Positions 6,096 through 51,136 of a DNA stretch of 64,000 bases are shown one piece after another (the stretch's first letter is position 1; every line of letters begins with the position of its first letter). The notes beneath the pieces were generated by a model. The model was given only the letters and a program-made list of their open reading frames with translations. It was not told the origin of the DNA and ran no database searches. Location: positions 174,090 to 238,089 of the forward strand of contig JAJEJC010000001.1 of NCBI GenBank assembly GCA_022828105.1, in the 5' to 3' direction. The position numbers and the translations under genes were made by a program. This stretch comes from Dehalococcoidia bacterium (GTDB lineage Bacteria; Chloroflexota; Dehalococcoidia; Bin125).

Positions 6096-6130
6096 GAGAT
6101 GAGGTTATCGGGCGTTGTTGGATCGTGAGG

Positions 6131-6190: not shown

Positions 6191-6266
6191 CAGAGATGTT
6201 GGTTGAGGGAACGCGAGAGACCCGCGCCGGGGCGCGGGTCTCTGTTGGGTGAACCCGGGTGGTGGA

Positions 6267-7562: not shown

Positions 7563-7657
7563 GGTTCCGGTTCCTGTTCCTCCGACTCAGTGCGGCATTG
7601 CCCGAGCCGATTGTGCGCTGCTGAGAATGATACGCGATCCCGAACCGCCTGCCCCGC

Positions 7658-8452: not shown

Positions 8453-8636
8453 ACGCGTGCTCCTGAATCCCTGCCGGGGAATTGGCGTCTGAGTGTGCCT
8501 GGATCGTCTGGCGGACGAACTAGTTAGGCGCAGGCTAAGCGCCAATCGAGTGTTGGGCAATTGCGGGTGGGCTGCGGTGTCGGGCGACCCTGCCGGGGGC
8601 CGTGCATAGTACGTGCGGTCGTAGCATGACGGCATC

Positions 8637-11600
8637 ATGCTGGGACTTCTGCGACTGCTCAGACTGGCGGCGTTGCGCGAGTTGCGCGGCGGCTGGGCGC
8701 TGATGCTGGCGGCGTCGGCGCTGCTGATCATCGCGGCCGGATTGGTCGCGCTGCCGCTCGTGTTTCGGGCCGCGTCGGCCGACCTCGCGCTGCGCGAGAC
8801 GATCGAGCAGTCCAATCGCGCCGTCCACTTCGTCGATCACACCCGTGCGGATCGTCCGGCGACACAGGCCGATGTCGTGGCGACGGCGGCGACGGCGGGC
8901 GAGCTGCGCGAACGTCACCTGGGTTCCTTCAAGGGTCTGCAAGGCGCGACGAAGCGGATCCTCGACTCACCGCAGGTGACATCGAGCTTCACGCGTCTCG
9001 ACAACAAAATCACGGAGGAGATGCTGGCCTATCTGACCGTGTTCGAGGACCTGAACGCGCATGCGAGGGTCGTGTCGGGACGCTGGCCGCAGGCGGCAGA
9101 TGAGGTCGTGATCGGCGCGAAGCTGGCGGAGCAACTGAGCCAGGACGTCGGCAGCACGATCGTATTCGGGAGCGCGCAGCCGTACACCATCGTCGGTCTA
9201 ATCGAGCCGGTCTCGGTTGACGTCAGCGGCGTGTTGGCGCTGCATTACACCGATGTCTGGTTTGAGCTTCAGGAGAACCTGGCCGGGCTGGTCGTGATTC
9301 CATACTTCGCGATGTTCGCCGGCGTCGAGGCGCTCGAGCAAGTCGGACTGCCGCTGGTGCATCGGTTCCGGACAGAGCTGAATCCCGATCGGTTGAACTC
9401 GGACCAGGTGGAGAAGGCGGTTGAGGCATTGGCGGCGTGGGAGCAGGAATCGAATCGACTGGTAGGCGGCTCGGCTTCGGCGCTGTTGTTGCCGACTTTG
9501 CAGCGATTCGAGCGGGAGGCGCAGTTCTCGGCCGGGCAGTCGCTGCTGGCCGGTCTGCAGATTGCGGCGGTGGCGATGTTCGGGGTGGCGCTGGTCGGTC
9601 GGGTGATGGCGCAGCGGACGCGGGTGGATCGGGAGCGGCTGGCGGCTCGCGGGGCGAAGCCATGGCAGCAGGCAGGGGCGCAGGCGATGCTGGGCGGACT
9701 GGCGGCAGTCCCGGCGGCGTTGCTCGGCGCGCCGCTGGCTGCGTTTGCATTGAGCCACGCGGGCCGGTTGGACGCCGTGGCGCGTGTGTCTGGCGGCGAG
9801 CCGTTTGACACGCGCCTGACCTGGGAAGCCTGGGCTCTGGCCGTGACCGGCGCACTGATCGCCTGGATCGCGTTCGCCGCCCCCGCCTGGTTCGATTCGC
9901 GCCAGCGGGAAAATCCGCGTGTCGCGGCGGGGCGTCCGCGGCGGCGCTCGCTGTTCCAGCGGGCCTGGCTCGATGTGGCGTTGCTGGCGCTGGCGACGGT
10001 GCTGTTCCTGCAGTTTGAGACCGAAGCTTCGGGCGGCGCGTTCTCGGCGTTCGAGTCGGGCGGGATGAATCCAGTGCTGATGCTCAGCCCGGGGCTGCTG
10101 TTGCTCGGCGCGGCGCTGACGATCATGCGGGTCGCGCCGCGCGTCTGGGGCATCGTTGCCCGGCTGCTCTCGCGATTGCCGATTCCATCCTGGCTCTATC
10201 TCGGCGTGCTCAACGTCGCGCGCAATCCAACCGGTCCGATGTTGCTCACGGCGTTGACCGCATTTGTCACGGCGGTCGGACTGATCTCGGCTACCTATGC
10301 GTCGACGATCGAGACCGTGGAGCGGGAACGGATCGAGTATCAGGTCGGTTCGGACCTGCGCGGCGTCTCGATCGGGGGCAACCTGTCGAACTCGACGATT
10401 GGCCGGGTGACCGAGCCGCTCGAACGGCGAGACGGGATCACGTCGGCGGCGGCGTACCGCGGGATCGGCTCAATCGGCGGCGACCGCGAGGGCAGTCGGG
10501 TGGTGCTGTTGGGGCTGCAAACCAGCCGCATCGGCGAGACCGTGTTGCTCGACGACGATCTGCTCGGCGTGCCGTCGGAGCAGCTATTGGCGGCGATTGC
10601 GCGTGAGCCGGGCCGGGTCGGGCAGGCCTTGCCCGACGGCGCGGAGTCGCTCGTAATCCGTGTGCGCAGCGAACCCGACAACAGCAACCTGGAGATGGCT
10701 GCGCGGGTCATTGACGGGCACGGCCAGGTCCAGATGAGGCAGTTCCGCAGCAACACGGCTACGACCGTGGACTCCGAGTGGCAGACACTGGAGGCGCCGC
10801 TCGCGGGGCTGAATCAGCCGCTTCGGATCGCCGCCATCGTGCTGCGTCCGCAGGCGAGGGTCGTGCGAGCGCCGACGGGCACGCTCTTCATCGCCGGTCT
10901 CGAGGCTCGGGTTGGAGAGCAGTCGGTCGCGGTCGATGCATTCGATGAGGCGGCGCCGTGGCTCGCGGCATCGAGCGGCGCTGGGCAGGACCGGATCGTG
11001 TTTGCGGGCGGCAACCTGGAGTACCGCTGGTCGCAGCTCGACGCGAACGACGAGCGGATCATCGTGCGGGAATCTCCAAACCTGCCTGTGAACGCGGCGA
11101 TGGATCGGAGATCACTGGAGACGGCCGATCTGGACGTCGGCGACGTGGTTCCGATCGTGCTGAGCAATACCACCATTCCGGTGCGGATCACGGCAGCGGT
11201 CGATTACTTTCCGACCTTGAATCCGGCCCAGGGTGGATTCCTGATTGCCGATCTGTTGGCGCTGCGCAGCGCGGCGCTCGTCGCGGCCGTGCGGGCCGTG
11301 CTGCCGATCACGGAAGTCTGGGCGCGCACAGAGACCGGCGCTGCCAATGTGATCGCGGCGGAACTGCTGGACGAGGTGTACCTGTCGAGCACGGTGCTCG
11401 ACGCCGACGCCCAGCTTGCGGCGGCCGAGTCCGATCCGCTGCGCTCGGGCGGGACGGCGGCGTTGTTTGTGGTTGGCTTCATCGGCTTGCTGGTGGTCGG
11501 ATCGGCGGCGCTGGTGTTCACGATGGCGGCGGCCGGCAGCGAGCGGGCGCGTGAGTTCGCGTTGATGCGGACGGTTGGATCGGGCCGGGCGGGACTGACC

Positions 11601-11876
11601 GCGCAGGCGGCGGTGGAGGTGGGCCTGGTGCTGATTGCCGGAGTCGGCCTGGGATTCGGACTGGGCCGGGCCGTCGCCGGCGCACTGCTCGCATTCCTCG
11701 ATGTGACGAGCGACGGTGTCGCGGCCGCGCCGCCCACGGCGTTGTCGATTGACTGGGCACTAGCCGGGATCGGGGTAGGCGTCGTGGCCGCCTGCGCGAT
11801 CCTGGGTACGTCGGCGATTGCCCGCTGGGCGACGGGACGCGATGCCGCGCCGCTGTTGCGGGAAGGCGCCGACTGA
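8637..11876 (+). CDS. Large duplicated FtsX-like (MacB-type) ABC permease, 1079 aa.
   Basis: N-terminal TM, extracellular domain and FtsX 4-TM bundle occur twice. The C-terminal MRTVGSGRAGL...LIAGVGLGFGLG resembles FtsX. Confidence 0.75.
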   Translation: MLGLLRLLRLAALRELRGGWALMLAASALLIIAAGLVALPLVFRAASADLALRETIEQSNRAVHFVDHTRADRPATQADVVATAATAGELRERHLGSFKGLQGATKRILDSPQVTSSFTRLDNKITEEMLAYLTVFEDLNAHARVVSGRWPQAADEVVIGAKLAEQLSQDVGSTIVFGSAQPYTIVGLIEPVSVDVSGVLALHYTDVWFELQENLAGLVVIPYFAMFAGVEALEQVGLPLVHRFRTELNPDRLNSDQVEKAVEALAAWEQESNRLVGGSASALLLPTLQRFEREAQFSAGQSLLAGLQIAAVAMFGVALVGRVMAQRTRVDRERLAARGAKPWQQAGAQAMLGGLAAVPAALLGAPLAAFALSHAGRLDAVARVSGGEPFDTRLTWEAWALAVTGALIAWIAFAAPAWFDSRQRENPRVAAGRPRRRSLFQRAWLDVALLALATVLFLQFETEASGGAFSAFESGGMNPVLMLSPGLLLLGAALTIMRVAPRVWGIVARLLSRLPIPSWLYLGVLNVARNPTGPMLLTALTAFVTAVGLISATYASTIETVERERIEYQVGSDLRGVSIGGNLSNSTIGRVTEPLERRDGITSAAAYRGIGSIGGDREGSRVVLLGLQTSRIGETVLLDDDLLGVPSEQLLAAIAREPGRVGQALPDGAESLVIRVRSEPDNSNLEMAARVIDGHGQVQMRQFRSNTATTVDSEWQTLEAPLAGLNQPLRIAAIVLRPQARVVRAPTGTLFIAGLEARVGEQSVAVDAFDEAAPWLAASSGAGQDRIVFAGGNLEYRWSQLDANDERIIVRESPNLPVNAAMDRRSLETADLDVGDVVPIVLSNTTIPVRITAAVDYFPTLNPAQGGFLIADLLALRSAALVAAVRAVLPITEVWARTETGAANVIAAELLDEVYLSSTVLDADAQLAAAESDPLRSGGTAALFVVGFIGLLVVGSAALVFTMAAAGSERAREFALMRTVGSGRAGLTAQAAVEVGLVLIAGVGLGFGLGRAVAGALLAFLDVTSDGVAAAPPTALSIDWALAGIGVGVVAACAILGTSAIARWATGRDAAPLLREGAD

Positions 11877-14800
11877 TGGCCCGCCAACTGCCGACGCCGC
11901 AACAGAGTCAGAGTGATGCGCCCCGGCGGGGCGAGACGGCGCGCGAGTTGGCGCTGCTCGCGATCCGCCGGATCACGTCGGCACCGCGGCTCTCGGCGGT
12001 GCTGCTGATCGGCGCGCTGCTTGCGGTCGGTCTGGCCAGCAGCGCGCCGATCTTCATCGAGGCGGTTCGGGACCTGGGACTTCGCCAAACGTTGGCCGAA
12101 GCCGATCCTGCCTCGCTTGACCTGCGCGTCGTCCGCTCGAACATCACGGCCAATCAGGAATCGGTTGGCTCGGTTGAGTCGGTGATCCAAACGGAGGCCG
12201 GCAGCGCGCTCGGAGCGCTCAGCTCCGAGCGAATGAGCGCGATTCGGACCGGCGGCTTCACGTTGCGCAGCGACGATCAGCCGTTCAACCCGCCGGATCC
12301 GCCGCACGCGACGTTCCTGGCCCAGAACGACCTGGCGGATGTATCGCTGCTGGCGGATGGTCGCCTGCCGGCTGTTGCCGAGGGAGTGATCGAGGTAGTC
12401 GTCGAGTCGCCGCAGGCGGAACGGTTCGGACTCGTCGTGGGCGACGAGCGCCTGGCGCAGCCGTTCTGGCTGGGCACGCAGCACGAGACGCGGGTGCGCA
12501 TCGTAGGCCTGGTCGAGCCATCGACGGACGAGCGGCGCTGGTCGACGCTGGACCCGCTGTACTTGCCGGTGGCCGCGCGCGACTCCGAACTGCGCTTCTG
12601 GACCAGCCGGGAGAGCATCCTCGGCATCCTGGCCGACCATTCGCCAACGCTGCGGCTGACCGTATTGCAGCGCTACCGAACCGATCTGGCCGGCGTCTCG
12701 GCGACGCAGGCGTCGGCTGCTGCCGATGCGCTCGAACGGATGACGCGGCGGATCGCGCAGGCGATTGACGGCGTGCAGCAGGAGACCGAGTTGGTCGACA
12801 CGCTGGTGGGGTTCCGGGAGCGATTCCAGTTCGCGCAATCGACGCTGCTGATGATCGTCTTGCAACTCGTGGGCGCGGTGCTGGTCTATGCGGTGGTCGC
12901 CTCGGCGATGTTGGCCGAGCAGCGCACCGAGGACACGGCCTGGCTGCGTTCGCGCGGCGCGCGGCAACGGGACGTGGCGGTGTTGCACCTGGTTGAGGCG
13001 GCGATGCTGACCGCTCCGGCGATTGTGCTCGGTCCGCTGATCGGAGTGGGGCTGGTCAGCCTGCTCGGCTTTGTGCCGCCGTTCGACGAGGCGCTTCGGG
13101 AGATCGGGTTCGGCCCGTTCCTGCCTGCGCCGCTTCCGGCCGAATCCTGGTACCTGGCGCTGGGCGCCGGCGCGTTGGCGCTGATTGCGCAGGCCGTGCC
13201 GACGTACCGCGCGACGCGCCAGACGATGGTGACCACAAGGAGAGAGCGAGGCCGTCCGCCCGCGTCGTGGACGCAGCGGGCTCTGATCGACGCGGCTGTT
13301 GTGGCGCTGGGGGCGCTGCTGATCTTCGAGCTGCAGTGGGCCGGGGACCCGATCGATTCGCCGCTGGTCGGGGAGACGCGGCTGGACTGGTTGGCGGTGG
13401 CGACGCCGACGGTGTTGCTGTTCGTGGTCGGACTGGCGGTGCTGCGGCTGTTTCCGACGGCGATGCGGGGCCTGGCCCGCGCCGCGTCGCCGCTGCGATG
13501 GCTCACGCTGTTGCTGGGCGCGTGGTACCTGGGACGGACACCGACCCACTACGGACGCACGGTGTTGCTGCTCACTATCGCCGGCGCGCTGGCCGTGTTC
13601 GCGGCGTCGTTCCGGACCACGCTCGACGCGTCCTACGACGATCGCGCGTTGCATGCGGTCGGCGCTGTGGTGCGCGTGCAGGAGCCGCTCTCGCAGACCC
13701 TGCCGTTCGATCGGATTGCCGAGTCGACGGGCAAGCCGGTGGCGCAGGTGCAGCGGATCACGGGCACGTTCGACGGCGACGAGGACTCGGGCAAGCTGCA
13801 GATTGTCGCTCTCGACGCCTCGACGGTCGCGGGCCAGATGCGCGAGGGCGGGGTCGACTGGTCGATGTCGCCGCAGGAACTCGACACGATCGGCCGGCCA
13901 ATCTCGCAGGCCGAGCGACCGATCCTTGAGTCCGGCGGGCGGGTCAGTCTGCGCCTGACTCCGGTGGGCATCGGACAGAGCGTCACGCTCGGGATCAAGG
14001 TCCAGGACGCGATCGGGCGGTACTGGTGGTATCGGCTGGGAGAGTTGTCGCAGTCCGATAGCGAGACGATTGAGCTGAGCGCCACGATTGGCGGCGAGCC
14101 GACGCTGTACATCCCGCTTGAAGGCGCGAGAGTGGTCGAGCGACGCAGCGCCTGGCGTCCCGGGGTCGGGGAGCGTCCCGAGTGGCCGCTGCAGTTGGTC
14201 TCGGTCGATGTTGCGCTGGCGCGAGCGCCGGGAGCTGTGGTCCTGCACTCGCTCGAGTACCGCTTCGCAGGCGAGACGAGCGTGATCGCCGACTTCAATC
14301 TCGACGAATGGGAGGCGATGCCGCTGTCGGCGGGCGAGGAAGCGGTCGACAGACTTGAGGCCGTGGAGGGCGGTTCGCGATACCGCTGGGATGCGACGCC
14401 GACGTCGCTGCGCGGGGTGCACTACCGCGGCGACAGCGAGCCGCTGCCGGTGCTGCTCTCGTCGGCGGCGATGGCGCAGGGCCGGTTGCGGATCGGGGAG
14501 CTGGTGCGGCTGCGGATTGGTCCGACGCCGATGCGGTTCGAGGTGGTCGGAGAGTTCAAGACCTTCCCCACGTACGACGAGCAGCGCGACGATCCGATCG
14601 TGATCCTCGATCGCGCGTCGCTGGTCGGACGCATCTACGGCAGCGCGTCGGCCGGCGTGTCGCTGGCGGTCGACGATGAGTTGTGGATTTCCGCTCCAAT
14701 CTCGGAGTGGCAGACACTGATCGTTGAGCAAGATGCGGCGGTGGAGAGCGATCAGGCCAACCGGTTCAATGAAGATTCCGACACGCAAGTCACTACTCGT

Positions 14801-15418
14801 ATTGGAATCACGATCATCACTAGATCCGTGCGTCCGGATGACGAACGAGCTTCGACATCGGAGATTGAGCAGCTTGCGGCAGGCGAAGCAGAGGAACAGC
14901 CGCCCCAGGTGCCACACGCAGATGCAACGGTCAGCGGCATTCTGACGCTCGACCAGGCACGCAGTGATTTGGCTGCCGATCCGCTGATTGTGGCCTCGTG
15001 GAACGGCGTCTTCATTGGGGCGCTGGCGGCGGTGGCGATTGCCTCGGCGTTCGGGCTGGTCGTGCTGACGGCGGTGACGGCGCAGGCGCGCAGGGTGGAG
15101 TTCGCGGTTTGCCAGAGCGTGGGCATGAGCATGCGCCAGATCCTGGCAATGATCGCGCTGGAGCAGTCGATTGTGATCGCGATCGGTCTTGGCGCGGGAT
15201 TGGTAGTGGGCACGCAAGCGGGCGCAATCCTGCTTGACTTCTTTGCGCTCACACCGGACGGCCGGGACGTCGTGCCGCCGCTGCAATTCATCGTCGACTG
15301 GCCGGGCGTGGCGGTGCTGTTCGGGGCGTTGGCCGGCCTGTTCGCGCTCAACCTGGGCGCGTTCCTCTGGTTCCTGCGGCGGATCGAGTTGCACGGGGCA
15401 TTGCGGCTGGCGGCATAG
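11876..15418 (+). CDS. Second large duplicated FtsX-like ABC permease, 1180 aa, translationally coupled to the previous gene by an ATGA overlap.
   Basis: VCQSVGMSMRQILAMIALEQSIVIAIGLGAGLVVG is an FtsX signature, and the permease architecture is repeated. The start overlaps the stop of the upstream gene. Confidence 0.75.
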   Translation: MARQLPTPQQSQSDAPRRGETARELALLAIRRITSAPRLSAVLLIGALLAVGLASSAPIFIEAVRDLGLRQTLAEADPASLDLRVVRSNITANQESVGSVESVIQTEAGSALGALSSERMSAIRTGGFTLRSDDQPFNPPDPPHATFLAQNDLADVSLLADGRLPAVAEGVIEVVVESPQAERFGLVVGDERLAQPFWLGTQHETRVRIVGLVEPSTDERRWSTLDPLYLPVAARDSELRFWTSRESILGILADHSPTLRLTVLQRYRTDLAGVSATQASAAADALERMTRRIAQAIDGVQQETELVDTLVGFRERFQFAQSTLLMIVLQLVGAVLVYAVVASAMLAEQRTEDTAWLRSRGARQRDVAVLHLVEAAMLTAPAIVLGPLIGVGLVSLLGFVPPFDEALREIGFGPFLPAPLPAESWYLALGAGALALIAQAVPTYRATRQTMVTTRRERGRPPASWTQRALIDAAVVALGALLIFELQWAGDPIDSPLVGETRLDWLAVATPTVLLFVVGLAVLRLFPTAMRGLARAASPLRWLTLLLGAWYLGRTPTHYGRTVLLLTIAGALAVFAASFRTTLDASYDDRALHAVGAVVRVQEPLSQTLPFDRIAESTGKPVAQVQRITGTFDGDEDSGKLQIVALDASTVAGQMREGGVDWSMSPQELDTIGRPISQAERPILESGGRVSLRLTPVGIGQSVTLGIKVQDAIGRYWWYRLGELSQSDSETIELSATIGGEPTLYIPLEGARVVERRSAWRPGVGERPEWPLQLVSVDVALARAPGAVVLHSLEYRFAGETSVIADFNLDEWEAMPLSAGEEAVDRLEAVEGGSRYRWDATPTSLRGVHYRGDSEPLPVLLSSAAMAQGRLRIGELVRLRIGPTPMRFEVVGEFKTFPTYDEQRDDPIVILDRASLVGRIYGSASAGVSLAVDDELWISAPISEWQTLIVEQDAAVESDQANRFNEDSDTQVTTRIGITIITRSVRPDDERASTSEIEQLAAGEAEEQPPQVPHADATVSGILTLDQARSDLAADPLIVASWNGVFIGALAAVAIASAFGLVVLTAVTAQARRVEFAVCQSVGMSMRQILAMIALEQSIVIAIGLGAGLVVGTQAGAILLDFFALTPDGRDVVPPLQFIVDWPGVAVLFGALAGLFALNLGAFLWFLRRIELHGALRLAA

Positions 15419-30719: not shown

Positions 30720-31364
30720 CTACCGAGGTCGCCAGATTCGGTGGAGGTCGACGGTGAGGCCGGGGAGGACTTCCTCGTCCGATAGCTCGTTGGGGCGCTC
30801 CAGGAGGATTGGCTCGGCGTTGGGGCGATGGACCCAGACTTGCTGATTGAACGGGTCGACCAGCCAGCCGAGGCGGACGCCGTTGCGCAGCCACAGATCC
30901 ATCTTGGCCTGTGCTCACTCCAGTTGGTCAGATACCGAACGTACTTCAACCACAAAGTCGGGCGCGACCGGCAACGGGTCGCCGTCGAAGAGGTTGGCAC
31001 TCGCCATTCGCTCGGCGCTGACCCACGCGGCGTCGGGTACTCGCCGGTTGCCGTCGGGCAGCTCGAACTGTCCGCCCGAGCCGTAGACCATGTCTCCCGC
31101 GTCCGTATCCATCCAGTTGCCGATCGCCAGGACGAACGTCATGGCAATCCACTCGCTGGTGTGACCGCTTGGCATGTTCAAGATCAGCGCTCCCGTCTCG
31201 TCCACCTCAAACGGCACGGTCTCGTTCAGGCTGCAGAGTTCAAGCAGCTTCTCGTTGGTCAGTTCCCAGTCGGGCGGAAGGCGCAGGGCGAGCGGGCCGA
31301 TGCCCAGCGACGCCAGCAGCGCCGTCACTTCTTCAGCTTTGCTCTTGGGATGTGCCGCAACCAT
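30720..31364 (-). pseudogene. Uma2-family (DUF820) endonuclease interrupted by a single in-frame TGA at 30915-30917.
   Basis: The N-terminal ORF ends ...VVEVRSVSDQLE-TGA and the protein continues in the same frame as AQAKMDLWLRNGVRLGWLVDPF. It is colinear with the intact paralog at 33315-33989. Confidence 0.7.
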
Positions 31365-32185: not shown

Positions 32186-33361
32186 TTGCATCGCCCTAGC
32201 CTGAGACAACGCAAGGGACGGAGGCGGGCTGTCGTGGAACTGAGCTGGTCCGACGCACGCAGGCTGCGCATCCAGGCGCAGGGCCTGGGCTTTGAGCGCG
32301 CGGCCGATGTCGAGTCGGCGGTTCGCGCGGCCGGCGCGATCCAGGCGCAGGACCGGCTGGGGATGCTGCTCGGCGTCGGCACGCGATCGGTCGGGCTAAC
32401 GGCTGCCGACGTCGACCACGCGCGCAACGTGGAGCGGTCGGTGGTGCGGTCGTGGCTGATGCGCGGGACGCTGCACCTGGTGGCGGGGTCCGACTTCCGC
32501 TGGATGCTCGGACTGCTCGGCGAGAAGATGGACGCCAAGGCGCTTAAGCGTCGCGCCGACCTGGGAATCTCGGCAGACGACCACGCGCGGGTGCTGGAGC
32601 TCTTCCGCCGACATCTCGCCGGCGGAGGAACGATCGTGCGAAGCGAGATTCCCGGCGCGCTCGAAGCTGCGGGACTGCCGGCGGCCGGACAGGCGCCGAG
32701 GCATCTGCTGCGCACAGCCTCAATGCTGGGCGTGATCTGCTTCGGCGCCGATCGCGACGACGACGAGGCGCACGTGCTGATCGACGAATGGCTGCCCGAT
32801 CCGGGTTTAGAGCCGTCCGATCCCGCGGCCGAGCTCGCGCGCCGCTACTTCGCCGCCTACGGTCCTGCCACGGCCGCTGACTTCCGCTGGTGGACCGGAC
32901 TCCCCGCCGCCGACACGAGGCGCGGATTCGAGGCTGTCGCGGGCGAACTTGCCGAGGTCAGCGTCGAGGGAACCGCGATGTGGATGACGTCCGAGGCGGC
33001 TGCTCAGACAGAGCAGGTGCTGGCTGCGCCCGACCATCGTGTGCGCGTCGCGGGACCGTTCGATCCCTATCTGCTCGGCTATGCGAAGCGCGAATTGGGC
33101 GTGGCCGGTTCGTTGCTCAAGCGAATCAACGCCGGCGGGGGGATGATCCGCTCCTGCGTCCTGATTGACGGGCGGCTCGTGGGCACCTGGGATCGCAAGC
33201 GGCGGGCGCGCGGACTCGCGGTCACGGTGACAGCGTTCGAGGCGCTCTCGGACGAGGCGCAGTCGCAGCTTGACGCCGAGTTTGCCGAGATCGGACGCTT
33301 CCTCGGTACGGAGATCAACTGGTCTCTGGCGTTGGATCCTGCTGCGGCCAGATCCGAGTGA
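32186..33361 (+). CDS. Winged-helix HTH_42 (YcaQ/AlkZ-like) DNA glycosylase family protein. The probable true start is GTG at 32234 after a GGAGG site.
   Basis: RRLRIQAQGL is the family N-terminus. AGAIQAQD gives a Q-x-Q type motif. Length and overall architecture fit the HTH_42 family. Confidence 0.65.
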   Translation: MHRPSLRQRKGRRRAVVELSWSDARRLRIQAQGLGFERAADVESAVRAAGAIQAQDRLGMLLGVGTRSVGLTAADVDHARNVERSVVRSWLMRGTLHLVAGSDFRWMLGLLGEKMDAKALKRRADLGISADDHARVLELFRRHLAGGGTIVRSEIPGALEAAGLPAAGQAPRHLLRTASMLGVICFGADRDDDEAHVLIDEWLPDPGLEPSDPAAELARRYFAAYGPATAADFRWWTGLPAADTRRGFEAVAGELAEVSVEGTAMWMTSEAAAQTEQVLAAPDHRVRVAGPFDPYLLGYAKRELGVAGSLLKRINAGGGMIRSCVLIDGRLVGTWDRKRRARGLAVTVTAFEALSDEAQSQLDAEFAEIGRFLGTEINWSLALDPAAARSE

Positions 33362-33989
33362 AGTCGATGGTCAGGTCTTCGGCGATCTCGGTCGCCGTCA
33401 ATGACTCCGGCCGTTCCACCTGCTCCGCCTCTTGTTCGGGTCGGTAAATCCAGACGGACGCGTCGAACGGGTCGACCAGCCAGCCCAATCGCGCGCCCTG
33501 CGCGACCCACATCTCCATCTTCTCCTGCTGGGCAGCAAGCTGATCACTGGCCGACCGTACTTCAACGACAAAGTCGGGACACACGCGCCAGATGGTATGG
33601 CCATCACCGGCTATCTCTGCCAGTCGCGCATCGCTGATCCACGCGGCATCGGCCATCCGGCGCTCTCCATTCGGCAACATGAAAGTGGCGCTCGATTCGA
33701 ACGCACGCCCGTTGGCCCTGGTGTCACTCCAAATCAGCGTCTGCGAGTAGATGCGGCCACCCTGATCGCTGCTGTCCGGACCAGTCGGCGCCATGATCAA
33801 CAGTCCTCCCTCGCAGTCGGATTCGATCCGCCAGCCCTCGTTCAGGGCGCCAAGTTCAAGGAACTGCTCGTCCGTCAACTCCCAGAGTCGTGGCAGTTGC
33901 ACTCGAAGCGGAAATGCGCCGTCCGCAACCGCCCGCAATTCACTCGCTGGCCCCGCCGCAGGCGACTTGGGTCGTTCCGCCGTAACCAT
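33315..33989 (-). CDS. Uma2-family (DUF820) putative restriction endonuclease-like protein, intact.
   Basis: PDFVVEVRSASD and GARLGWLVDPFDASVWIYRP are Uma2 family hallmarks. Confidence 0.75.
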   Translation of the reverse strand: MVTAERPKSPAAGPASELRAVADGAFPLRVQLPRLWELTDEQFLELGALNEGWRIESDCEGGLLIMAPTGPDSSDQGGRIYSQTLIWSDTRANGRAFESSATFMLPNGERRMADAAWISDARLAEIAGDGHTIWRVCPDFVVEVRSASDQLAAQQEKMEMWVAQGARLGWLVDPFDASVWIYRPEQEAEQVERPESLTATEIAEDLTIDFTRIWPQQDPTPETS

Positions 33990-39481: not shown

Positions 39482-40636
39482 CTAGAGGTCGAAGGGAAGC
39501 AGGCTGCCGACGCCGAAAGTGACGGCGGCGGCAAGCATCCCGACGAACACGGAGCGAGCGCCGGCGTAGAGCGGGTTTCGGCTGGTGACGAGCGACGTGA
39601 AGAGTCCGGCCACGGCGAGCGTGACCACGCTGGCCACGACGCCGGTGACGAGCGCCCAGTAATCGACGTTCCAGCCGGAGGCGTGCCAGATCAGGAAGGG
39701 CACGAGCGGGATCAGCGCGCCGATGGAGAACGCGGCGAACGAACTGCCGGCCGCCTTCCAGGGATCGCCGAGTTGTTCGGGATCGAGTCCCAGTTCTTCA
39801 CGCACCATCGTGTCGATCAGCGACTCAGGGTTGGCCGACAACTCTTCGGCGACTTGCTCGGCGAGCTCTTGGGAGAGTCCCTTGGCAGAGTAAATGGCGA
39901 CCAGCTCCTGCTTCTCTTCCTCGGGATCGAGCAGGACTTCGTCGCGCTCCATGGCGATCTGGCGCTGCAGCACCTCGGACTGACCCCGCACGGAGATGTA
40001 CTCGCCGGCGGCCATCGAGAACGCGCCGGCCAGCCAACCGCCGATGCCCGCGACGAGGACGGCTTCGGAACCGATCGCGACGCCGGCGACGCCGGCGATC
40101 AGGGCGAGATTCGAAACGATGCCGTCGTTGAGTCCGAACAGCGCCGCGCGGAAGGTCGATGCGCCGTCGGCGCCGACTCCGGCGTGGCCTTCGCCGACGG
40201 CGCCGACCGCGCCGAACTGCGGGGCAAGCTCGGCCAGCGCGGCGCGGTGTTCGCGTTCCTCTTCGGCCAGGTCTCCCGAGTCCGGGTCGGAGACGTACTT
40301 CTTGATATCGACCAGCTCCTCGCGCCGGAGCTGCGAGATGACGAAGCCCAGCCCCCAGATGCGGGCCTGGAAGGCCATCAGGCGGACGCGCAGCGAGGGT
40401 CGGTGCAGCTCGGTCGGGAACCGCTCGTCGCCGAGCAGGCGCACCCAATGGGTGGCGTGTTCCAACTCCGACTCGGCCATGCGGCTGAGCACCTGGGCCT
40501 GCGGAGGATTGCTCATCATAGCGAGGCGGTCGTAGAGCCAGGCGGCGTCGAGCTCGTCAGCGATCATCTCGCGCAGACGCTCGCGGCGCTCCTCCGTCAG
40601 CGGCACCTGGGCGCGTGGCGTATCGAGCGTCGTCAT
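39482..40636 (-). CDS. Membrane-bound ferritin-like / VIT1 (CCC1) family iron transporter (MbfA-like).
   Basis: N-terminal Er/ferritin-like helix pair (ELDAAWLYDRL...ESELEHATHW) followed by VIT1 TM domains with a GLNDGIVSNLAL motif. Confidence 0.8.
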   Translation of the reverse strand: MTTLDTPRAQVPLTEERRERLREMIADELDAAWLYDRLAMMSNPPQAQVLSRMAESELEHATHWVRLLGDERFPTELHRPSLRVRLMAFQARIWGLGFVISQLRREELVDIKKYVSDPDSGDLAEEEREHRAALAELAPQFGAVGAVGEGHAGVGADGASTFRAALFGLNDGIVSNLALIAGVAGVAIGSEAVLVAGIGGWLAGAFSMAAGEYISVRGQSEVLQRQIAMERDEVLLDPEEEKQELVAIYSAKGLSQELAEQVAEELSANPESLIDTMVREELGLDPEQLGDPWKAAGSSFAAFSIGALIPLVPFLIWHASGWNVDYWALVTGVVASVVTLAVAGLFTSLVTSRNPLYAGARSVFVGMLAAAVTFGVGSLLPFDL

Positions 40637-40751
40637 GCGGCCAGTGTATCCCGCGACACCGGAGTTCCCGCGCATGGGCGATGATCAGTCGCAGACGACC
40701 AGCAGACTGGAACACAACGCTGCGAACAGGTTCCACGACGGAGAACGCAAC

Positions 40752-45457: not shown

Positions 45458-46897
45458 ATGGGCCTGCGAACGCCCGCCGAGTATGTCGAGTCGCTGAGGG
45501 ACGGCCGCGAGATCTGGTACCGCGGCGAGCGAGTCGACGACGTGACGACGCATCCGACGATCAGCAAGGCGGTCAAGCACGCCTGCATCGACTACGAGAT
45601 GGCGGAGTCGGACGAATACCGCGAGCTGGCCACCTACGAGGAGGACGGCGAGACGCACTCGGCCTACTACCGGGTGCCGAGGACGACTGAGGATCTGCTC
45701 AATCGCTCGAAGTTGATCGAGGCGGCGACCGCGGAAGGCGACACGCTGGTCGTGCTGATCAAGGAGATCGGCACCGACGCGCTGTTTGCGCTGCTGGCGG
45801 TGACGGCCGAGTTTGAGGATCAGACCTACTTCGAGCGCGTCCAGGCGTTCTACGAGCATTGCCGCTCGAACGACCTGGCGCTGGCGGTCGCACAAACAGA
45901 CGTCAAGGGCGACCGGGTCAAGAGGCCGTCGCAGCAGTCGGATCCGGACATGTACCTGCGGGTCGTAGAGCGGCGACCCGACGGCGTCGTGGTGCGCGGG
46001 GCCAAGGCGCACACGTCGGTGGTGACGAATACGAACGAAGTGATCGTGCTGCCGACGCGGGCCATGGGTCCGGATGAGCAGGACTGGTCGATCGCCTTCG
46101 CGCTGCCGGTCGACACGCCCAACCTGCGCTTCATCGCGTCGCCGTTCGGCGACAACGCCACGCACGACGGCGAGCGCCCGATCTCGGCGGTGCGCAAGAT
46201 GATGGAGACGATCACCGTCTTCGACGACGTGTTCGTGCCCAACGAGCGCATCTTCCTCGACGGCGACACCGAGGCGGCGGGCCAGTTGGCGCTGACCTTT
46301 GTCGAATATCACCGCTTCACGGCGGTCTCCTACAAGCTGCCGCTGATCGATGCGCTGGGCGGCTGCGCGGCGCTGGCGGCGGACTACAACGGGATTCTCA
46401 ACGTGTCGCACGTGCGCGAGAAGTTTGTTGACCTGATCCAGTACGCCGAGACGACGCGGGCGCTGCTGGAGAAGTCGGCCGACCGCTGCATTGGCAAGCC
46501 CAACGGCCAGGTCGCGCCCGATCCGATGACGGTCAACATGGCCAAGTCGATCTTCGCGCACGGCTATCACGAGGCGGTCCAGCACGTGCAGGAGCTGGCC
46601 GGTGGCATTTTGGTCACGGGACCGGGAGACGAAGACTGGGAGACGGAGGAGTTGCGGCCGTTGCTGCAGAAGTACCTCGCCGGCCGCGACGGGATCGACG
46701 GCGCGCAGCGGATGAAGCTGCTCAACTTCATTCGCGACCTGACCTCGTCGGACTACGGCGCGTACCAGGAGGTGTTGGCGATTCACGCCGAGGGATCGCT
46801 GCAGGCGGAGCGGTTGCAGATCTTTCGCGCCTTCAACGAGAACGGCGGCGCGCGGCGGGTGATGCGGCTCGCCGGTAGAATGGCGGGCGTCAGGTAA
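45458..46897 (+). CDS. HpaB-family two-component flavin-dependent monooxygenase, oxygenase component (4-hydroxyphenylacetate 3-hydroxylase family).
   Basis: 479 aa with family-typical N- and C-terminal acyl-CoA-dehydrogenase-like folds. Conserved HpaB-like segments such as RGAKAHTS. Confidence 0.85.
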   Translation: MGLRTPAEYVESLRDGREIWYRGERVDDVTTHPTISKAVKHACIDYEMAESDEYRELATYEEDGETHSAYYRVPRTTEDLLNRSKLIEAATAEGDTLVVLIKEIGTDALFALLAVTAEFEDQTYFERVQAFYEHCRSNDLALAVAQTDVKGDRVKRPSQQSDPDMYLRVVERRPDGVVVRGAKAHTSVVTNTNEVIVLPTRAMGPDEQDWSIAFALPVDTPNLRFIASPFGDNATHDGERPISAVRKMMETITVFDDVFVPNERIFLDGDTEAAGQLALTFVEYHRFTAVSYKLPLIDALGGCAALAADYNGILNVSHVREKFVDLIQYAETTRALLEKSADRCIGKPNGQVAPDPMTVNMAKSIFAHGYHEAVQHVQELAGGILVTGPGDEDWETEELRPLLQKYLAGRDGIDGAQRMKLLNFIRDLTSSDYGAYQEVLAIHAEGSLQAERLQIFRAFNENGGARRVMRLAGRMAGVR

Positions 46898-46928
46898 GGG
46901 CCCGCCGACGAGCTCTCGGGGAGCGTTC

Positions 46929-47594
46929 ATGCCGGAACTGCCGCTGTTTCCGCTTCAGATCGTGGTCTTTCCCGGCGAGACCGTGCCGCTGCACATCTTC
47001 GAGCCGCGCTACCGCCAACTGGTCAAGGACACGCTGGAGAGCGGCGAACCCTTCGGCATCGTGCTGACCAAGCGCACTCGACAGGCTGCCACGCCCGAGG
47101 ATCGGGAGCCGACCCACGAGGTCGGCTGCACCGTGCGGATGGAATCCAACGAGGTGTTCCCCGACGGCCGTTTCAACATCGGTTGCATCGGCGAGCGGCG
47201 CTTTCGGATCGTCGAAAAGCTGGGCGAACGGCCCTACTGGGTCGCCGACGTGGATTATCTCGACGACCCGACGGATCGCGACTCGGACGGAGCCTATGTC
47301 GCCTACGACGCCGCGGCCGACCTGTATCGCGATCATCTGGGATTGGCGCTGGCGCTGCAGAACTCGTGGCAGCGCTCATACCGATTGCCGCGTCAGCCGT
47401 ATCCGTTGGTCAATCACATCGCCTCGCGGATCGAGGCGCCGGCGACGGTGAAGCAGGAGATTCTCAAGTCGGAGTCGACGGTGGAGCAACTGAACCTGCT
47501 CAGCCGCATTCTGCGCGCTTCAAACCGCCAACTCACCGACCGCGTGCATCTGCACCATCGCCAGCGTTACGAGGGTCTTGGCGTGGGCAACTGA
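46929..47594 (+). CDS. LON-N (Lon protease N-terminal substrate-binding) domain protein.
   Basis: LPLFPLQIVVFPGETVPLHIFEPRYRQL is the canonical LON_N start. Confidence 0.8.
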   Translation: MPELPLFPLQIVVFPGETVPLHIFEPRYRQLVKDTLESGEPFGIVLTKRTRQAATPEDREPTHEVGCTVRMESNEVFPDGRFNIGCIGERRFRIVEKLGERPYWVADVDYLDDPTDRDSDGAYVAYDAAADLYRDHLGLALALQNSWQRSYRLPRQPYPLVNHIASRIEAPATVKQEILKSESTVEQLNLLSRILRASNRQLTDRVHLHHRQRYEGLGVGN

Positions 47595-47642
47595 CCAGCC
47601 GGCCACAATCGGCATAATCGGCAAAATCGACCCTGCGAGCGC

Positions 47643-48836
47643 GTGCACAGCATGCGGACTCGCTTGCGAGTTGTCGCCGCCCGAATTAACGTGCGAACAC
47701 GAACCGGGAACCTGCCGATTGCGCGGGCCGGTTCGCAGCAACATCAACACGGGGGACCGGCCTTGACTCAATCCGACGAACATCCACAATCACCTCGGTC
47801 CGGCGATGCACGCGGCACCGCAGTTGCCGATCCATCCGACAGCCCGAAGCAAGCCCTTCGCGACTACCACCAGATCACGCGGCTGAGCGAATCGCAGGAG
47901 GATGAGGACCGGATTGCGGAGCAGCCGAAGCTGGTCAGCCGCTTCTATGACGCCGTAACCCGGTTCTACGAGTTTGGCTGGGGTACGACCTTCCACTTCT
48001 CGCCGCGCCGACCGGGCGAGAGCCTGGTCGAGTCGCAACGCCGGCACGACGAGGGGATCGGCGAGACGCTGCGGCTCAAGCCCGGCATGGAGGTCGCCGA
48101 TCTTGGATGTGGGGTTGGCGGACCAATGATCTCGATCGCGCGCGCGACCGGAGCCAGCATCACCGGGATCAACTTCAGTCCCTTGCAGATCGAGCGAGGC
48201 CAACGACTGGTGGCGAAGGCGGGGCTCGAAGACACTTGCCGCTTCCTGTACGCCAACTTCATGGACGTCCCGCTCGAGGATGGCGCGTTTGACGCGATCT
48301 ACTCGTTTGAAGCGGTCTGCCACGCGCCCAACAACCTGCTGCTCTTCCGCGAGCTGTACCGGCTGCTCAGGCCGGGCGGCGAGATTGCCATCGTCGATTG
48401 GTGCTTCACGGATCGCTTCGACCCGGACGACGCGCGGCATGCGCGCATCCGCAGTGAAATCGAGACCAACAACGCGGTCCCCGATCTGCTCACGACGACG
48501 CAACAGGTGGAGACCGCGCAGAAGGCAGGGTTCGAGATCATCGAGGCGATTGATCAGCAGGCGGAGTTTGGCGATCCGCGCGCTCCCTGGTACATGGCGC
48601 TGCAGGGACGCGACTTCTCGTTCACATCGTGGGCGCGAACGCCGATGGGGCGCGGCTTTACGGCGGCGGTGACGAGGCTGCTCGAGTTCGTCCGCATTGC
48701 GCCGTCTGGCACGAGCGAGACCGCCAGGTTCCTGAACGTCGCCGCCGACGCCCTGGTCGAAGGTGGCGAACTGGAGATCTTCACGCCCAGCTTCCTGATC
48801 CACGCTCGCAAGCCGGAGTCGACCGAGGCGTCATGA
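47643..48836 (+). CDS. SAM-dependent methyltransferase of the sterol-24-C / MPBQ (ERG6/SMT-like) family. The start is uncertain, with TTG at 47764 preceded by GGGGGA.
   Basis: FYDAVTRFYEFGWG...FHF and VADLGCGVGGP are the SMT family signature and motif I. Confidence 0.75.
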   Translation: MHSMRTRLRVVAARINVRTRTGNLPIARAGSQQHQHGGPALTQSDEHPQSPRSGDARGTAVADPSDSPKQALRDYHQITRLSESQEDEDRIAEQPKLVSRFYDAVTRFYEFGWGTTFHFSPRRPGESLVESQRRHDEGIGETLRLKPGMEVADLGCGVGGPMISIARATGASITGINFSPLQIERGQRLVAKAGLEDTCRFLYANFMDVPLEDGAFDAIYSFEAVCHAPNNLLLFRELYRLLRPGGEIAIVDWCFTDRFDPDDARHARIRSEIETNNAVPDLLTTTQQVETAQKAGFEIIEAIDQQAEFGDPRAPWYMALQGRDFSFTSWARTPMGRGFTAAVTRLLEFVRIAPSGTSETARFLNVAADALVEGGELEIFTPSFLIHARKPESTEAS

Positions 48837-49927
48837 TGCTGAGCCTGCGGTCTCGACGCAGGGACGACCTCACCGCACTCGACGCGCTGCGCGCCGCGAC
48901 GTATCCCTATCCCTACCCGACGGGCTGGTACCGGATCGCCGACGCGGACTCGATCCGACCCGGCGAGATACGCGCGATCACCTGCCTTGGCAAGCAGTTC
49001 GTCCTCTGGCGAACGCGGGAGAGCGGCGAGATTCACTTGATGGACGCCGCCTGCCCGCATCTCGGCGCCAATCTTGCCGGCGGGCGAGTCGAGGGCGATT
49101 GCATCGAGTGTCCGTTTCACCTCTGGCAGTTCGACGGCACAGGGCGGGCGCAGCGGATTCCCTATAGCGAACAGCCGCCCGAGCGCGTGTTGACCCGGCC
49201 TTACGAGTTGGAAGATGTGCACGGGCAGTTGTTCCTGTTTCACCGCAGCGAGGCGGACCCGGGGGCTGCGGATCAACCGCCCCCCTACGACGTGCCGCGG
49301 ATCGCCGAGGTCGACGAGGGCAGCTTCGTGCGCCGAGGTCAGCGGAACGCGGGGCGTGTGCGGATGCACATCATCGAGATCTGCGAAAACGCCGTCGATA
49401 CCGCGCACTTCCAGGCCTTGCACAGTCAGCTGCACCTGCCCTGGACGCAGGTCCGCGTGCCGGGGGTCGAAATCGTTCACCGCGCCAAGTGGGTGCTGGA
49501 CGAGGACCAGCCCTGGATGATGCACTTCGACGACGACGTGTCGCTGCGGGCGTTGGGTCGGACGCTGCCCGGCGGCGAGACCCACGTGCGGGTCTCCTAC
49601 CACGGACCCGGCAGCGTGCTGACCTTCCGCTTCGAGCTTCCCGGTTGGGGCGAACTCGCCATGGTCAAGACCTTTCTTCCGATTGGTCCGTTGGAACAGC
49701 AGATTGACTTCCAGTGGTACGCCCCGAGGTCGGTGCCGCGCTGGTTGGTCTGGTGGGTGATCGGCAACTGGGTCTCGCAGTTCCCGCAGGACATCGACAT
49801 CTGGGAGAACAAGAGCTTCCAGGCTCAACCCAAGCTCTGCCGCGACGACGGCCCGGTCTTCGCCATGCGGCGCTGGTTCGAGCAATTCCTGCCCGAGTCC
49901 GACGCCGAGCGACTGCCGGGCGCGTAA
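48833..49927 (+). CDS. Rieske [2Fe-2S] non-heme-iron oxygenase (KshA/Neverland-like family), translationally coupled to the methyltransferase by an ATGA overlap.
   Basis: CPHLGANL...CIECPFHLWQF is the Rieske CxH...CxxH motif. ENAVDTAHFQALH is the mononuclear iron D-x2-H-x4-H motif. Confidence 0.8.
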   Translation: MMLSLRSRRRDDLTALDALRAATYPYPYPTGWYRIADADSIRPGEIRAITCLGKQFVLWRTRESGEIHLMDAACPHLGANLAGGRVEGDCIECPFHLWQFDGTGRAQRIPYSEQPPERVLTRPYELEDVHGQLFLFHRSEADPGAADQPPPYDVPRIAEVDEGSFVRRGQRNAGRVRMHIIEICENAVDTAHFQALHSQLHLPWTQVRVPGVEIVHRAKWVLDEDQPWMMHFDDDVSLRALGRTLPGGETHVRVSYHGPGSVLTFRFELPGWGELAMVKTFLPIGPLEQQIDFQWYAPRSVPRWLVWWVIGNWVSQFPQDIDIWENKSFQAQPKLCRDDGPVFAMRRWFEQFLPESDAERLPGA

Positions 49928-49981
49928 TTCCAGCCTCGGACGCCAGAGGGAGCGGGTCCCTGGGCAAGCCAGGGACTGGGA

Positions 49982-51136
49982 CTAGAGCGCGTCGGAACCG
50001 TTTTGGCGGATGTGGCGGGCGACCGTGAGTCGCAGCAGCTCGGTTGGCCCCTCGGCGATCCTGAGCGAACGACTCCAGCGGTAGAGACGCTCCAGCGGGT
50101 GGCCTCGCAGGAGCGCCTGGGCTCCGTGCAACTGGATGGCTCGGTCCACGCTGCGATGCAGGCATTCGGACGCCAGCCACTTGGCGGCGGCGACCTGCGT
50201 GCCGGCGGTCGACTCGTCGGACTCTCTCGCCTCTGCGGCCCGGTAGAGCGCGGCGCGGGCGGCGAAGCTGTCCGCCGCGATGTCGGCGAAGATCGCCTGC
50301 ACCTGCTGCTGCTCGGCGAGCGGCTGTCCGCTGCGGTGCGGACCCTCGATCCGCTCCAGCGTCGCCCGCGCGACCCAGCGCGTCCAGCCGACGCAATCGG
50401 CGGCGACACCGAGTCTCATCCGATCGATGTTCTGCATGGCCCGCGGCATACCGTCGCCGACGTTGCCCAGCAGTCTCGAATCGGGAACGGGTACGGCGTC
50501 AAAGTAAAACGGCGAGTGCGTGCTGCCGTCGATCGATGCGCCCAGTTCGCCCTCGGTGACCCCCGGCGCTTCGCGGTCGACGACGAGCAGCGCCGTGCCT
50601 TCATCGGGCACGTTGGCGACCACGACGAGCCAGTCGGAGTCTGCGCCGCCGGTGACGAATCCCTTGGCCCCGCTGACGAGGAAGCCGTCGGAACCGTCCG
50701 CCAGGGTTGTGCGGATCGCTTCGGTCGGCGCGCGGCGGCCGTCGGTTCGCAGCGCTTCGGTGAAGGCGAAGGCGGCGCGGCGCTCGCCGCGGACGACCGG
50801 TTCGTACAGCGCTTCACGCTGGGCGGGGTTGTCGGCCAGCCGCATGATGCCGGGTCCGGCGCCGAGCGCGGCGGAGGCGAAGGCATTGCCGCTCAGGGCA
50901 AGCGCCTCACGCGCCGCGGTCAGCAGCCGAGGTCCGCCGCCGAGTCCACCATCGGATTCGGGCAGCGCCAGCCGATAGAAGCCGGCGGCCTCGGAGCGCC
51001 GCGCAATCTCGCGCCGCAGCTCCGGCGGCGGCGCTTCCGGGTCGACGCCGCTGGTGATCGGGTCGATCTGCTCGGTCACGAACTGGAGCAGGCGCGATTG
51101 CAAGTCGGACAGGTCGGGAGTCAACTCAAACTGCAT
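49982..51136 (-). CDS. Acyl-CoA dehydrogenase family protein.
   Basis: ACAD N, middle and C domains, with a C-terminal QLHGAQALLRGHPLERLYRW. Confidence 0.85.
   Translation of the reverse strand: MQFELTPDLSDLQSRLLQFVTEQIDPITSGVDPEAPPPELRREIARRSEAAGFYRLALPESDGGLGGGPRLLTAAREALALSGNAFASAALGAGPGIMRLADNPAQREALYEPVVRGERRAAFAFTEALRTDGRRAPTEAIRTTLADGSDGFLVSGAKGFVTGGADSDWLVVVANVPDEGTALLVVDREAPGVTEGELGASIDGSTHSPFYFDAVPVPDSRLLGNVGDGMPRAMQNIDRMRLGVAADCVGWTRWVARATLERIEGPHRSGQPLAEQQQVQAIFADIAADSFAARAALYRAAEARESDESTAGTQVAAAKWLASECLHRSVDRAIQLHGAQALLRGHPLERLYRWSRSLRIAEGPTELLRLTVARHIRQNGSDAL

Follow-up and report, generated by a model that had tools for sequence, protein, structure and literature searches.

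In the 64,000-nucleotide stretch of Dehalococcoidia DNA analysed here (contig JAJEJC010000001.1, positions 174,090 to 238,089 of the forward strand; hereafter the window), the gene for a sterol methyltransferase (SMT) is directly followed by that for a Rieske non-heme iron oxygenase, and the two form a unit that is present or absent between close relatives. The pair probably represents a sterol-tailoring cassette of two genes, combining C-24 methylation with an O2-dependent oxidation of the B ring, that would be horizontally mobile among sponge symbionts of several phyla. New here is a probably mobile cassette of an SMT and a Neverland (NVD)-like Rieske oxygenase which stands apart from the core sterol cluster, and whose oxygenase comes from a subfamily that has not been studied. 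With a GC content of ~66%, the window is GC-rich. It is part of a metagenome scaffold of 942,667 bp (ENA ERZ23491425, KELL22-1_SAMN22237338, scaffold_1); its nearest protein matches are annotated as proteins of Chloroflexi/Chloroflexota metagenome-assembled genomes (MAGs), and the genome is most likely that of a sponge-associated member of the Chloroflexota.

Recurrence and edges of the gene pair

What marks these two genes as a unit? We sampled 80 loci from GTDB species representatives, each encoding a relative of the methyltransferase, and used every window protein as a query against them. In 16 of the loci, the SMT gene has a full-length orthologue of the Rieske oxygenase directly beside it; these orthologues share 40-67% identity, except for the one in L059 at 30%, which falls outside the main Rieske clade. 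The pair is found in either gene order, and its open reading frames (ORFs) often overlap by a few bases, with overlapping or abutting frames in L002, L003, L017, L060, L070, L077 and L079; in a seventeenth case (L082), the two genes are 2.4 kb apart. The pair loci span at least five phyla, with members in Chloroflexota/Dehalococcoidia, Myxococcota, Acidimicrobiia (Candidatus Poriferisodalis), Pseudomonadales, Rhodospirillales and other Alphaproteobacteria. Most of them carry the names of sponge-symbiont MAGs, by which we judged habitat, and the 'jk18x' and 'p16x' bins follow the same naming pattern as the Ircinia MAGs of Kelly et al. (2022). Upon all-against-all clustering of the ORFs, SMT and Rieske emerged as the sole gene families common to the pair loci. 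The association of the two genes, proposed in a first-pass annotation of the window that was made from its sequence alone, is thus borne out as a conserved adjacency.

In a neighbour-joining (NJ) tree, the Rieske-paired SMTs make up two clades, and the SMTs that reside inside SMO/OSC-CYP51-ERG24-SdmA-SdmB clusters make up another. The NJ tree of the Rieske proteins, computed with 100 bootstraps, displays the same two groups, a match that would fit inheritance of the pair as a unit. At the level of the individual genes, direct reading of the junction in the window (letters GCG TCA TGA TGC; TCATGATGC) upholds the ATGA overlap described at first pass: the ATG at 48833-48835 overlaps the stop codon TGA at 48834-48836, and the ATG at 48836, which the public gene call takes as the Rieske start in place of the alternative one at 48833, overlaps the same stop by 1 base. 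A GAGG lies 4-7 nt upstream at this junction, and the two genes are translationally coupled.

The edges of the unit are defined by two relatives, L088 from an Aplysina aerophoba metagenome and L089, which are collinear with the window over the whole neighbourhood but lack the SMT and Rieske genes. The common order runs VIT1, HisG, PPC protein, RCC1-repeat protein, HpaB (93% identity), LON-N (86%), acyl-CoA dehydrogenase (ACAD; 82%), hypothetical protein and S8 peptidase. Comparison by blastn shows that the DNA homology ends at 47594, the stop codon of the LON-N gene, and restarts at 49986, at the 3' end of the ACAD gene; between these blocks, there are 440 bp in L088 and L089 versus 2391 bp in the window. 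As the collinear relatives are without exactly these two genes, SMT and Rieske constitute a cassette of two genes whose presence varies between close relatives, and one that is most likely horizontally mobile. Its edges carry no integrase, no tRNA and no flanking repeats other than short ones at chance level; the sole tRNA found, tRNA-Pro, is ~10.5 kb away.

Two of the sampled loci are peculiar in their own right. Although labelled Spirochaetaceae, L006 has genes with 87% identity to their counterparts in the Myxococcota MAG L010, which suggests either mis-binning or a recent transfer. In an unclassified MAG (L075:5494-10734), two SMT paralogues, one of them branching deepest in the SMT tree, flank the Rieske gene.

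The methyltransferase and the oxygenase

Judged by its sequence features, the methyltransferase appears to be a genuine SMT-family enzyme and not one of the generic UbiE/COQ5 type. In addition to class I methyltransferase domains it possesses a Sterol_MT_C domain (PF08498; 83.4 bits versus a cutoff of 21.7), whose whole profile (positions 1-66 of 66) is matched by residues 327-392 of the long ORF. The sterol-binding Region I reads YEFGWGTTFHF from Y69 to F79, satisfying the motif YExGWGxxFHF, and the S-adenosylmethionine (SAM)-binding Region II reads DLGCGVGGP (D113-L-G115-C-G117-V-G-G120-P121); the motif FYDAVTRFYEFGWG, quoted at first pass, is present as well. According to a preprint, 25 residues are conserved in every functional SMT (Brown and Welander, 2025), and all of them are found in the window protein, as mapped by motif and by constant offsets from the yeast numbering (12, 10 and 17) rather than by an alignment including ERG6. 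By the same offset mapping, the position equivalent to yeast 249 is apparently Asn, not the Gly required for propylation and thus for 24-isopropyl formation, for which reason the window SMT would be expected to methylate or ethylate, but not to propylate. On this protein, the UbiE/COQ5 profile reaches no more than 37.6 bits, and all NCBIfam models of quinone methyltransferases stay far below their cutoffs, so the profile scores do not place it among the generic quinone-type enzymes. Its 849 homologues include proteins under the JGI name 'sterol 24-C-methyltransferase', and the initial description as SMT-like has held up.

The second protein carries the ligands of a Rieske [2Fe-2S] centre (C73-x-H75...C92-x2-H95) and a mononuclear iron motif (E184-x3-D188-x2-H191-x4-H196, plus D319), together with a KshA_C domain (Pfam, 77 bits), and its AlphaFold2 model has a mean confidence (pLDDT) of 87.9. 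We compared it with five characterised cholesterol 7-desaturases, taken from the supplement of PMC7425431, and with KshA, scoring NVD and KshA at the same database size setting. It aligns in a single stretch with Xenopus NVD (186 bits, 34.5% identity over 345 aa), Danio NVD (173 bits, 31.7%), DAF-36 (160 bits, 30.3%) and Bombyx NVD (157 bits, 32.8%), and reaches 84 bits with Tetrahymena DES7. Of the proteins with a solved structure, KshA matches best, both by sequence (134 bits in two fragments, 5.5e-38) and by fold (Foldseek hits 4qdf and 4qdc, TM-score 0.71, 25-27% identity). Because it aligns over its full length with the four animal enzymes at 157-186 bits, versus 134 bits in pieces with KshA, the window protein is nearer to NVD/DAF-36 than to KshA. 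The domains, the motifs and the full-length alignment with NVD/DAF-36 agree with the original assignment as KshA/Neverland-like, and the public names of its homologues, 'cholesterol 7-desaturase' or 'cholesterol 7-dehydrogenase', point the same way; among these is a protein of Enhygromyxa salina that is 46% identical.

Two other proposals for the oxygenase were rejected. An identity with SdmA is excluded, as the SdmA model NF052579 reaches just 46.8 bits on the window protein, over residues 32-199 and hence the Rieske domain only, versus 404.6 bits (positions 4-346 of 351) for a Rieske protein encoded inside the OSC cluster of a sponge Chloroflexota (L045); furthermore, no SdmB-, 3Beta_HSD- or SDR-type gene adjoins the Rieske gene in the window or in any pair locus. 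Fusions of SMT and Rieske, which would have served as Rosetta-stone evidence, did not materialise: the long Rieske homologues (518-805 aa) have no methyltransferase domain, and of four whose sources were looked up, three are eukaryotic proteins with N-terminal extensions and one is a JGI metagenome protein.

As a separate observation, a third group of full-length KshA_C Rieske proteins exists near SMTs, in L064 and L072 (Dehalococcoidia, ~6 kb from the SMT) and at L059:7420-8703. These are 27-30% identical to the window protein and branch outside both the NVD clade and the bacterial clade.

Proposed function and alternatives

What could such a pair accomplish? The SMT would methylate a delta-24 sterol at C-24, with SAM as the donor. 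The Rieske oxygenase would receive electrons from a reductase or ferredoxin encoded elsewhere and pass them via the [2Fe-2S] centre to the iron held by His191, His196 and Asp319, where the sterol would be oxidised with O2. The joint product would be a 24-alkylated sterol with an oxidised B ring, C7(8) desaturation to delta-5,7 or delta-7 sterols being the likeliest outcome, as all characterised relatives of the oxygenase (NVD, DAF-36, DES7 and KshA) attack C7-C9 of the ring system; 9-alpha-hydroxylation and side-chain oxidation are the alternatives. The sterol itself could be made by the bacterium through a lanosterol pathway of its own or be taken from the host, and the cassette would pass horizontally, as a unit, between sponge symbionts of several phyla. 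The domains and motifs, the conserved adjacency, the presence or absence between relatives and the family placement are shown by these data; that this pair acts on a sterol, which position the oxygenase attacks and where the sterol would originate are what we infer from them. Among the isoprenoid-quinone or sterol-like scaffolds originally suggested for the pair, a sterol is strongly favoured and a quinone disfavoured.

The genomic context in relatives points to sterols. In Myxococcota-type loci, as described below for the side-chain alternative, the gene between those for SMT and Rieske is of the geranylgeranyl-reductase family, to which a bacterial sterol reductase belongs. On a 3.49 Mb contig of a Chloroflexota relative, whose SMT is 80% identical to that of the window, SMT and Rieske genes lie together at 2.69 Mb, and an SdmB-SdmA-ERG24-CYP51-SMO/OSC cluster, itself without an SMT, lies 1.96 Mb from the pair. 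Thus, at least some close relatives can make the sterol scaffold. A different setting is found in L085, L086 and L087 (1-11190), where a 49% identical Rieske homologue is placed between sulfatase genes (a sulfatase and an alkyl-sulfatase) and a Steroid_dh (5-alpha-reductase-like) gene, with TonB-dependent receptors and DUF1214 also present; this conserved locus, seen on 22 contigs, looks like one for the uptake and modification of sterol sulfates. L083:18759-22846 (contig ERZ25069412 ctg853966 of a relative), ~5.4 kb downstream of the SMO/OSC sterol cluster and separated from it by three unrelated genes, encodes a DUF1214 protein along with one of the Sulfotransfer_3 family and a fusion of an SDR with an APS-kinase domain, which could be a sterol-sulfation module. 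Sterol sulfates are common in sponges.

Two parallels outside of bacteria would fit C7(8) desaturation, although they are correlations and not tests. In cultured cells of Ircinia muscarum, delta-5,7 sterols (7-dehydrocholesterol, along with ergosterol plus 7-dehydrositosterol, 24-alkylated ones among them) account for ~90% of the free sterols (PMC4210886), and for Capsaspora a route from cholesterol to ergosterol has been proposed in which a Rieske C7-desaturase works alongside an SMT and a C22-desaturase (PMC4967820).

Several points weigh against this assignment. In the Rieske tree, the clade of the characterised NVD, DAF-36 and DES7 proteins, joined by a heterolobosean protein, excludes the window protein in 100 of 100 bootstraps. 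The bacterial Rieske clade, itself recovered in 99 of 100, groups in 100 of 100 with unstudied protist proteins from Gefionella, Leptophrys and Corallochytrium. The window protein is thereby not an orthologue of the characterised 7-desaturases, but belongs to a well-supported sister subfamily that has no characterised member; its description as KshA/Neverland-like at first pass stands as to the lineage, within which it is nearer to NVD/DAF-36. It is also shorter than the eukaryotic enzymes (363 versus 428-460 aa) and is devoid of their N-terminal extension, with alignments beginning at its residues 5-27 versus eukaryotic residues 57-119. We know of no assayed enzyme from either the SMT clade or the Rieske clade of the window. 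Among the scanned ORFs of the 64 kb window, we found neither an OSC nor a reductase partner; the search for a scaffold-forming enzyme, a flavin reductase and a KshB-like reductase gave no match in the same set, in keeping with the remark at first pass that no scaffold-forming enzyme was in view. Finally, SMTs of the same clade have no Rieske gene within 10 kb in L005, L007, L009, L011 and L020, and the pairing is therefore frequent but not obligatory. A more specific proposal is tentative, and less probable than the reading above: that the cassette provides the first bacterial Rieske-type sterol B-ring desaturase associated with an SMT, traded among sponge symbionts of many phyla, and turning their own or host sterols into delta-5,7 24-alkyl (ergosterol-type) sterols.

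Could the oxygenase instead act on the side chain, as its partner does? It might hydroxylate C-25, desaturate C-22, or introduce the delta-24 double bond, which the SMT requires, into a saturated host sterol such as cholesterol. Its gene is tightly coupled to that of a side-chain enzyme, and the distinctness of its subfamily from the characterised 7-desaturases would leave room for another reaction. Moreover, in Myxococcota-type loci a gene for a flavoprotein of the geranylgeranyl-reductase (GGR) family is located between those for SMT and Rieske, and in L010:10001-14826 and L006:2209-7157 the arrangement extends to a four-gene form of SMT, GGR-family flavoprotein, NVD-like Rieske and His-box FA_desaturase-like membrane protein. 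The GGR family includes Bsr, the bacterial sterol C-24 reductase and thus a side-chain enzyme (PMC12004948). The membrane protein scores 28.9 bits in Pfam versus a cutoff of 29.7 and has no counterpart in the window; a ~430 aa "fourth conserved gene" initially considered downstream in L010 turned out to be an Arg/Pro-rich artefact of the wrong frame, the true gene being that of the FA_desaturase-like protein. Furthermore, E. salina, which encodes the 46% identical homologue, produces 25-hydroxycholesterol, for which no enzyme is known (PMC10202945). However, the E. salina gene is solitary, with no sterol genes found nearby, no sequence feature indicates the side chain, and every characterised relative works at C7-C9 of the rings, which makes a side-chain oxygenase unlikely.

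We consider it improbable that the oxygenase is a 9-alpha-hydroxylase of the KshA type, either starting steroid catabolism or making 9-alpha-hydroxysterols. Its Pfam domain is KshA_C and, as described above, KshA is its best match among solved structures; in addition, 9-alpha-hydroxy-5,6-epoxy-delta-7 sterols with 24-alkyl side chains are described from Ircinia echinata (PMC6267468). Yet NVD and DAF-36 score higher and over the full length, KshB, KstD and other catabolic genes were not found among the scanned window ORFs, and the conserved partner is a biosynthetic methyltransferase.

Even less probable is that the pair acts on a lipid other than a sterol, for example a prenylquinone, a hopanoid or a triterpenoid of another kind, with the sterol-like features being a family resemblance only. 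The lack of a sterol scaffold enzyme among the scanned ORFs would agree with this, as would the existence of terpene and fatty-acid C-methyltransferases among the relatives of SMTs and the inactivity on sterols of some bacterial SMT homologues that have been tested. It is opposed by the sterol-specific C-terminal domain and the complete set of 25 functional-SMT residues, by relatives which carry OSC clusters, and by the sterol-type contexts in which homologues of the Rieske protein occur.

The last alternative concerns the extent of the system. HpaB and LON-N precede the pair in the same direction, with gaps of just 31 and 168 bp, and the first-pass annotation had taken all four genes as one cluster, in which HpaB would supply a third oxygenation activity. 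Our comparison does not support this. HpaB, LON-N and the downstream ACAD occur in 0 of the 80 SMT loci, and a methyltransferase or Rieske gene occurs in 0 of 22 metagenome loci that encode HpaB relatives; the full set of four was seen in none of these loci. The adjacency of HpaB and LON-N, by contrast, is kept in L088-L091, and of the genes at this place the collinear relatives keep HpaB, LON-N and ACAD only. HpaB and LON-N are thus unrelated neighbours of the pair and, as they never accompany SMT and relatives retain HpaB without the pair, HpaB does not add a third oxygenation activity to the system. The HpaB protein further scores 217 bits on TIGR02309, under the equivalog cutoff of 480, and a Flavin_Reduct-type partner for it is missing from the scanned window ORFs. 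That all four genes form one pathway, decorating an isoprenoid-quinone or sterol-like scaffold by three oxygenation or methylation activities, is hardly credible in light of these counts, of the loci with HpaB at 93% and LON-N at ~86% identity that lack SMT and Rieske, and of a homology break that falls exactly at the LON-N stop codon.

Locus features and comparison with known systems

The coordinates of the cassette and its flanks are compiled in Table 1; all four plus-strand ORFs were confirmed where the first-pass annotation had placed them. The longest ORF of the methyltransferase opens at GTG 47643, but the gene caller prefers a TTG start. The promoter match at the left edge of the cassette comes from a consensus scan that gave 2 sites versus 0.6 expected.

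Table 1. Features of the cassette and its flanks in the window
Feature	Position	Strand	Evidence
HpaB-family flavin monooxygenase component; left flank, outside the system	45458-46897	+	Pfam HpaB_N 6e-80, HpaB 1e-51
Stand-alone LON N-terminal domain protein; left flank, outside the system	46929-47594	+	LON_substr_bdg 2e-33, sole domain
Sigma-70-like promoter match at left edge of cassette (weak evidence)	47591-47618	+	Consensus scan, 9/12 positions
SMT-Rieske cassette, present here but missing from collinear relatives	47595-49985	+	blastn versus L088, L089
Sterol methyltransferase (SMT/ERG6 family), 357 aa from TTG 47763	47763-48836	+	Sterol_MT_C 1.2e-23, Methyltransf_11 1e-19, gene call
ATGATG junction, SMT stop and Rieske starts	48833-48838	+	Direct sequence reading
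Rieske non-heme iron oxygenase, Neverland/KshA lineage, 363 aa	48836-49927	+	Rieske 1e-21, KshA_C 3e-21
Acyl-CoA dehydrogenase (ACAD), convergent with Rieske gene; right flank, outside the system	49982-51136	-	Pfam Acyl-CoA_dh domains

Some further observations concern the surroundings. A freshwater metagenome contig (L093:1181-4125) carries HpaB paralogues in tandem, which share 58% and 32% identity with the HpaB of the window. In the window, 4467-15418 encodes a tryptophan-halogenase-like flavoprotein, a luciferase-like monooxygenase and an alpha/beta hydrolase beside two FtsX/MacB-type permease proteins (1079 and 1180 aa), and may be a small natural-product or export locus. At 39482-40675 on the minus strand, a rubrerythrin/ferritin-like N-terminal region is fused to a VIT1 iron-transporter domain (397 aa); this gene overlaps the longest-ORF start of HisG, an overlap that is absent from the public gene call. 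Two Uma2-family putative endonuclease genes (30915-31364 and 33315-33989, minus strand) lie in a stretch in which GC falls to 0.62 and where, besides a methyltransferase and an AlkZ-like glycosylase, there are few confident ORFs.

Which parts of this were known before? Bacterial SMTs and bacterial sterol clusters with SdmA and SdmB have been published (PMC10070321), as has the enrichment of SMTs in symbionts of Ircinia sponges (PMC9531527). Neither of these papers mentions a Rieske or 7-desaturase partner of SMT, and our literature search found no description of a bacterial cholesterol 7-desaturase or of a Rieske/SMT pairing. Genes that modify desaturation have been described as largely absent from bacteria (Hoshino and Gaucher, 2021; PMC8237579), and the oxygenase of the cassette may represent a class of sterol enzyme that has been missing from bacteria. 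If our proposal is true, symbionts would be partly responsible for the sterol profiles, rich in delta-5,7 forms and alkylated in the side chain, of keratose sponges such as Ircinia, which would tie symbiont genes, in a testable manner, to the unusual delta-5,7 sterols found in these animals. It would also add one more bacterial route to the alkylated steranes that serve as animal biomarkers; side-chain-alkylated steranes are read as fossils of eukaryotes and early sponges, a reading already weakened by bacterial SMTs. With a cassette that moves between symbiont phyla and is present or absent in close relatives, the ability to decorate sterols would be passed on by gene transfer and would not depend on the core sterol pathway for its spread. 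As the Rieske subfamily includes protist proteins without an assigned function, its reaction, once solved, would annotate those as well.

The closest known counterparts of the methyltransferase are the bacterial sterol C-24 methyltransferases (Brown et al., 2023, PMC10070321; Kelly et al., 2022, PMC9531527), which likewise combine Methyltransf_11 with Sterol_MT_C, share the habitat of the window SMT's relatives as far as MAG names tell, and have the conserved functional residues in common with it. However, the described enzymes adjoin SMO/OSC-CYP51-ERG24-SdmA-SdmB clusters, whereas the window SMT falls into a separate NJ clade, has no such cluster beside it and has a different Rieske partner. 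The "three uncharacterized genes" reported to accompany a bacterial SMT (Hoshino and Gaucher, 2021; PMC8237579) may be equal to the GGR-like, Rieske and FA_desaturase-like genes of the Myxococcota-type loci L006 and L010, which likewise number three; of these, the window has the Rieske partner alone.

For the oxygenase, SdmA, the bacterial Rieske sterol C-4 methyl oxidase, is likewise a sterol-acting Rieske protein found near SMTs in bacterial sterol clusters, but it has a VanA_C-type C-terminal domain; the window protein aligns with it by the Rieske domain only and has no SdmB at its side. The 3-ketosteroid 9-alpha-hydroxylase KshA shares the fold and the iron ligands, yet is less similar than NVD; no KshB or catabolic genes are nearby in the window, and the conserved partner is biosynthetic. 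Neverland, DAF-36 and Tetrahymena DES7 resemble the window protein in the motifs CxH...CxxH and E-x3-D-x2-H-x4-H and in a catalytic domain of the KshA_C type, but they have an N-terminal membrane-anchor extension. The window protein is without this extension, is bacterial, forms an operon with an SMT and belongs to a separate, strongly supported clade that is known from sequence alone. The nearest precedent for the proposed system as a whole is Capsaspora owczarzaki, in which an SMT and a Rieske sterol oxygenase would likewise remodel an existing sterol rather than build one (PMC4967820). There, however, the genes are eukaryotic and unlinked, the oxygenase is an orthodox NVD orthologue, and a P450 C22-desaturase takes part, whereas the window pair consists of just two, physically coupled genes.

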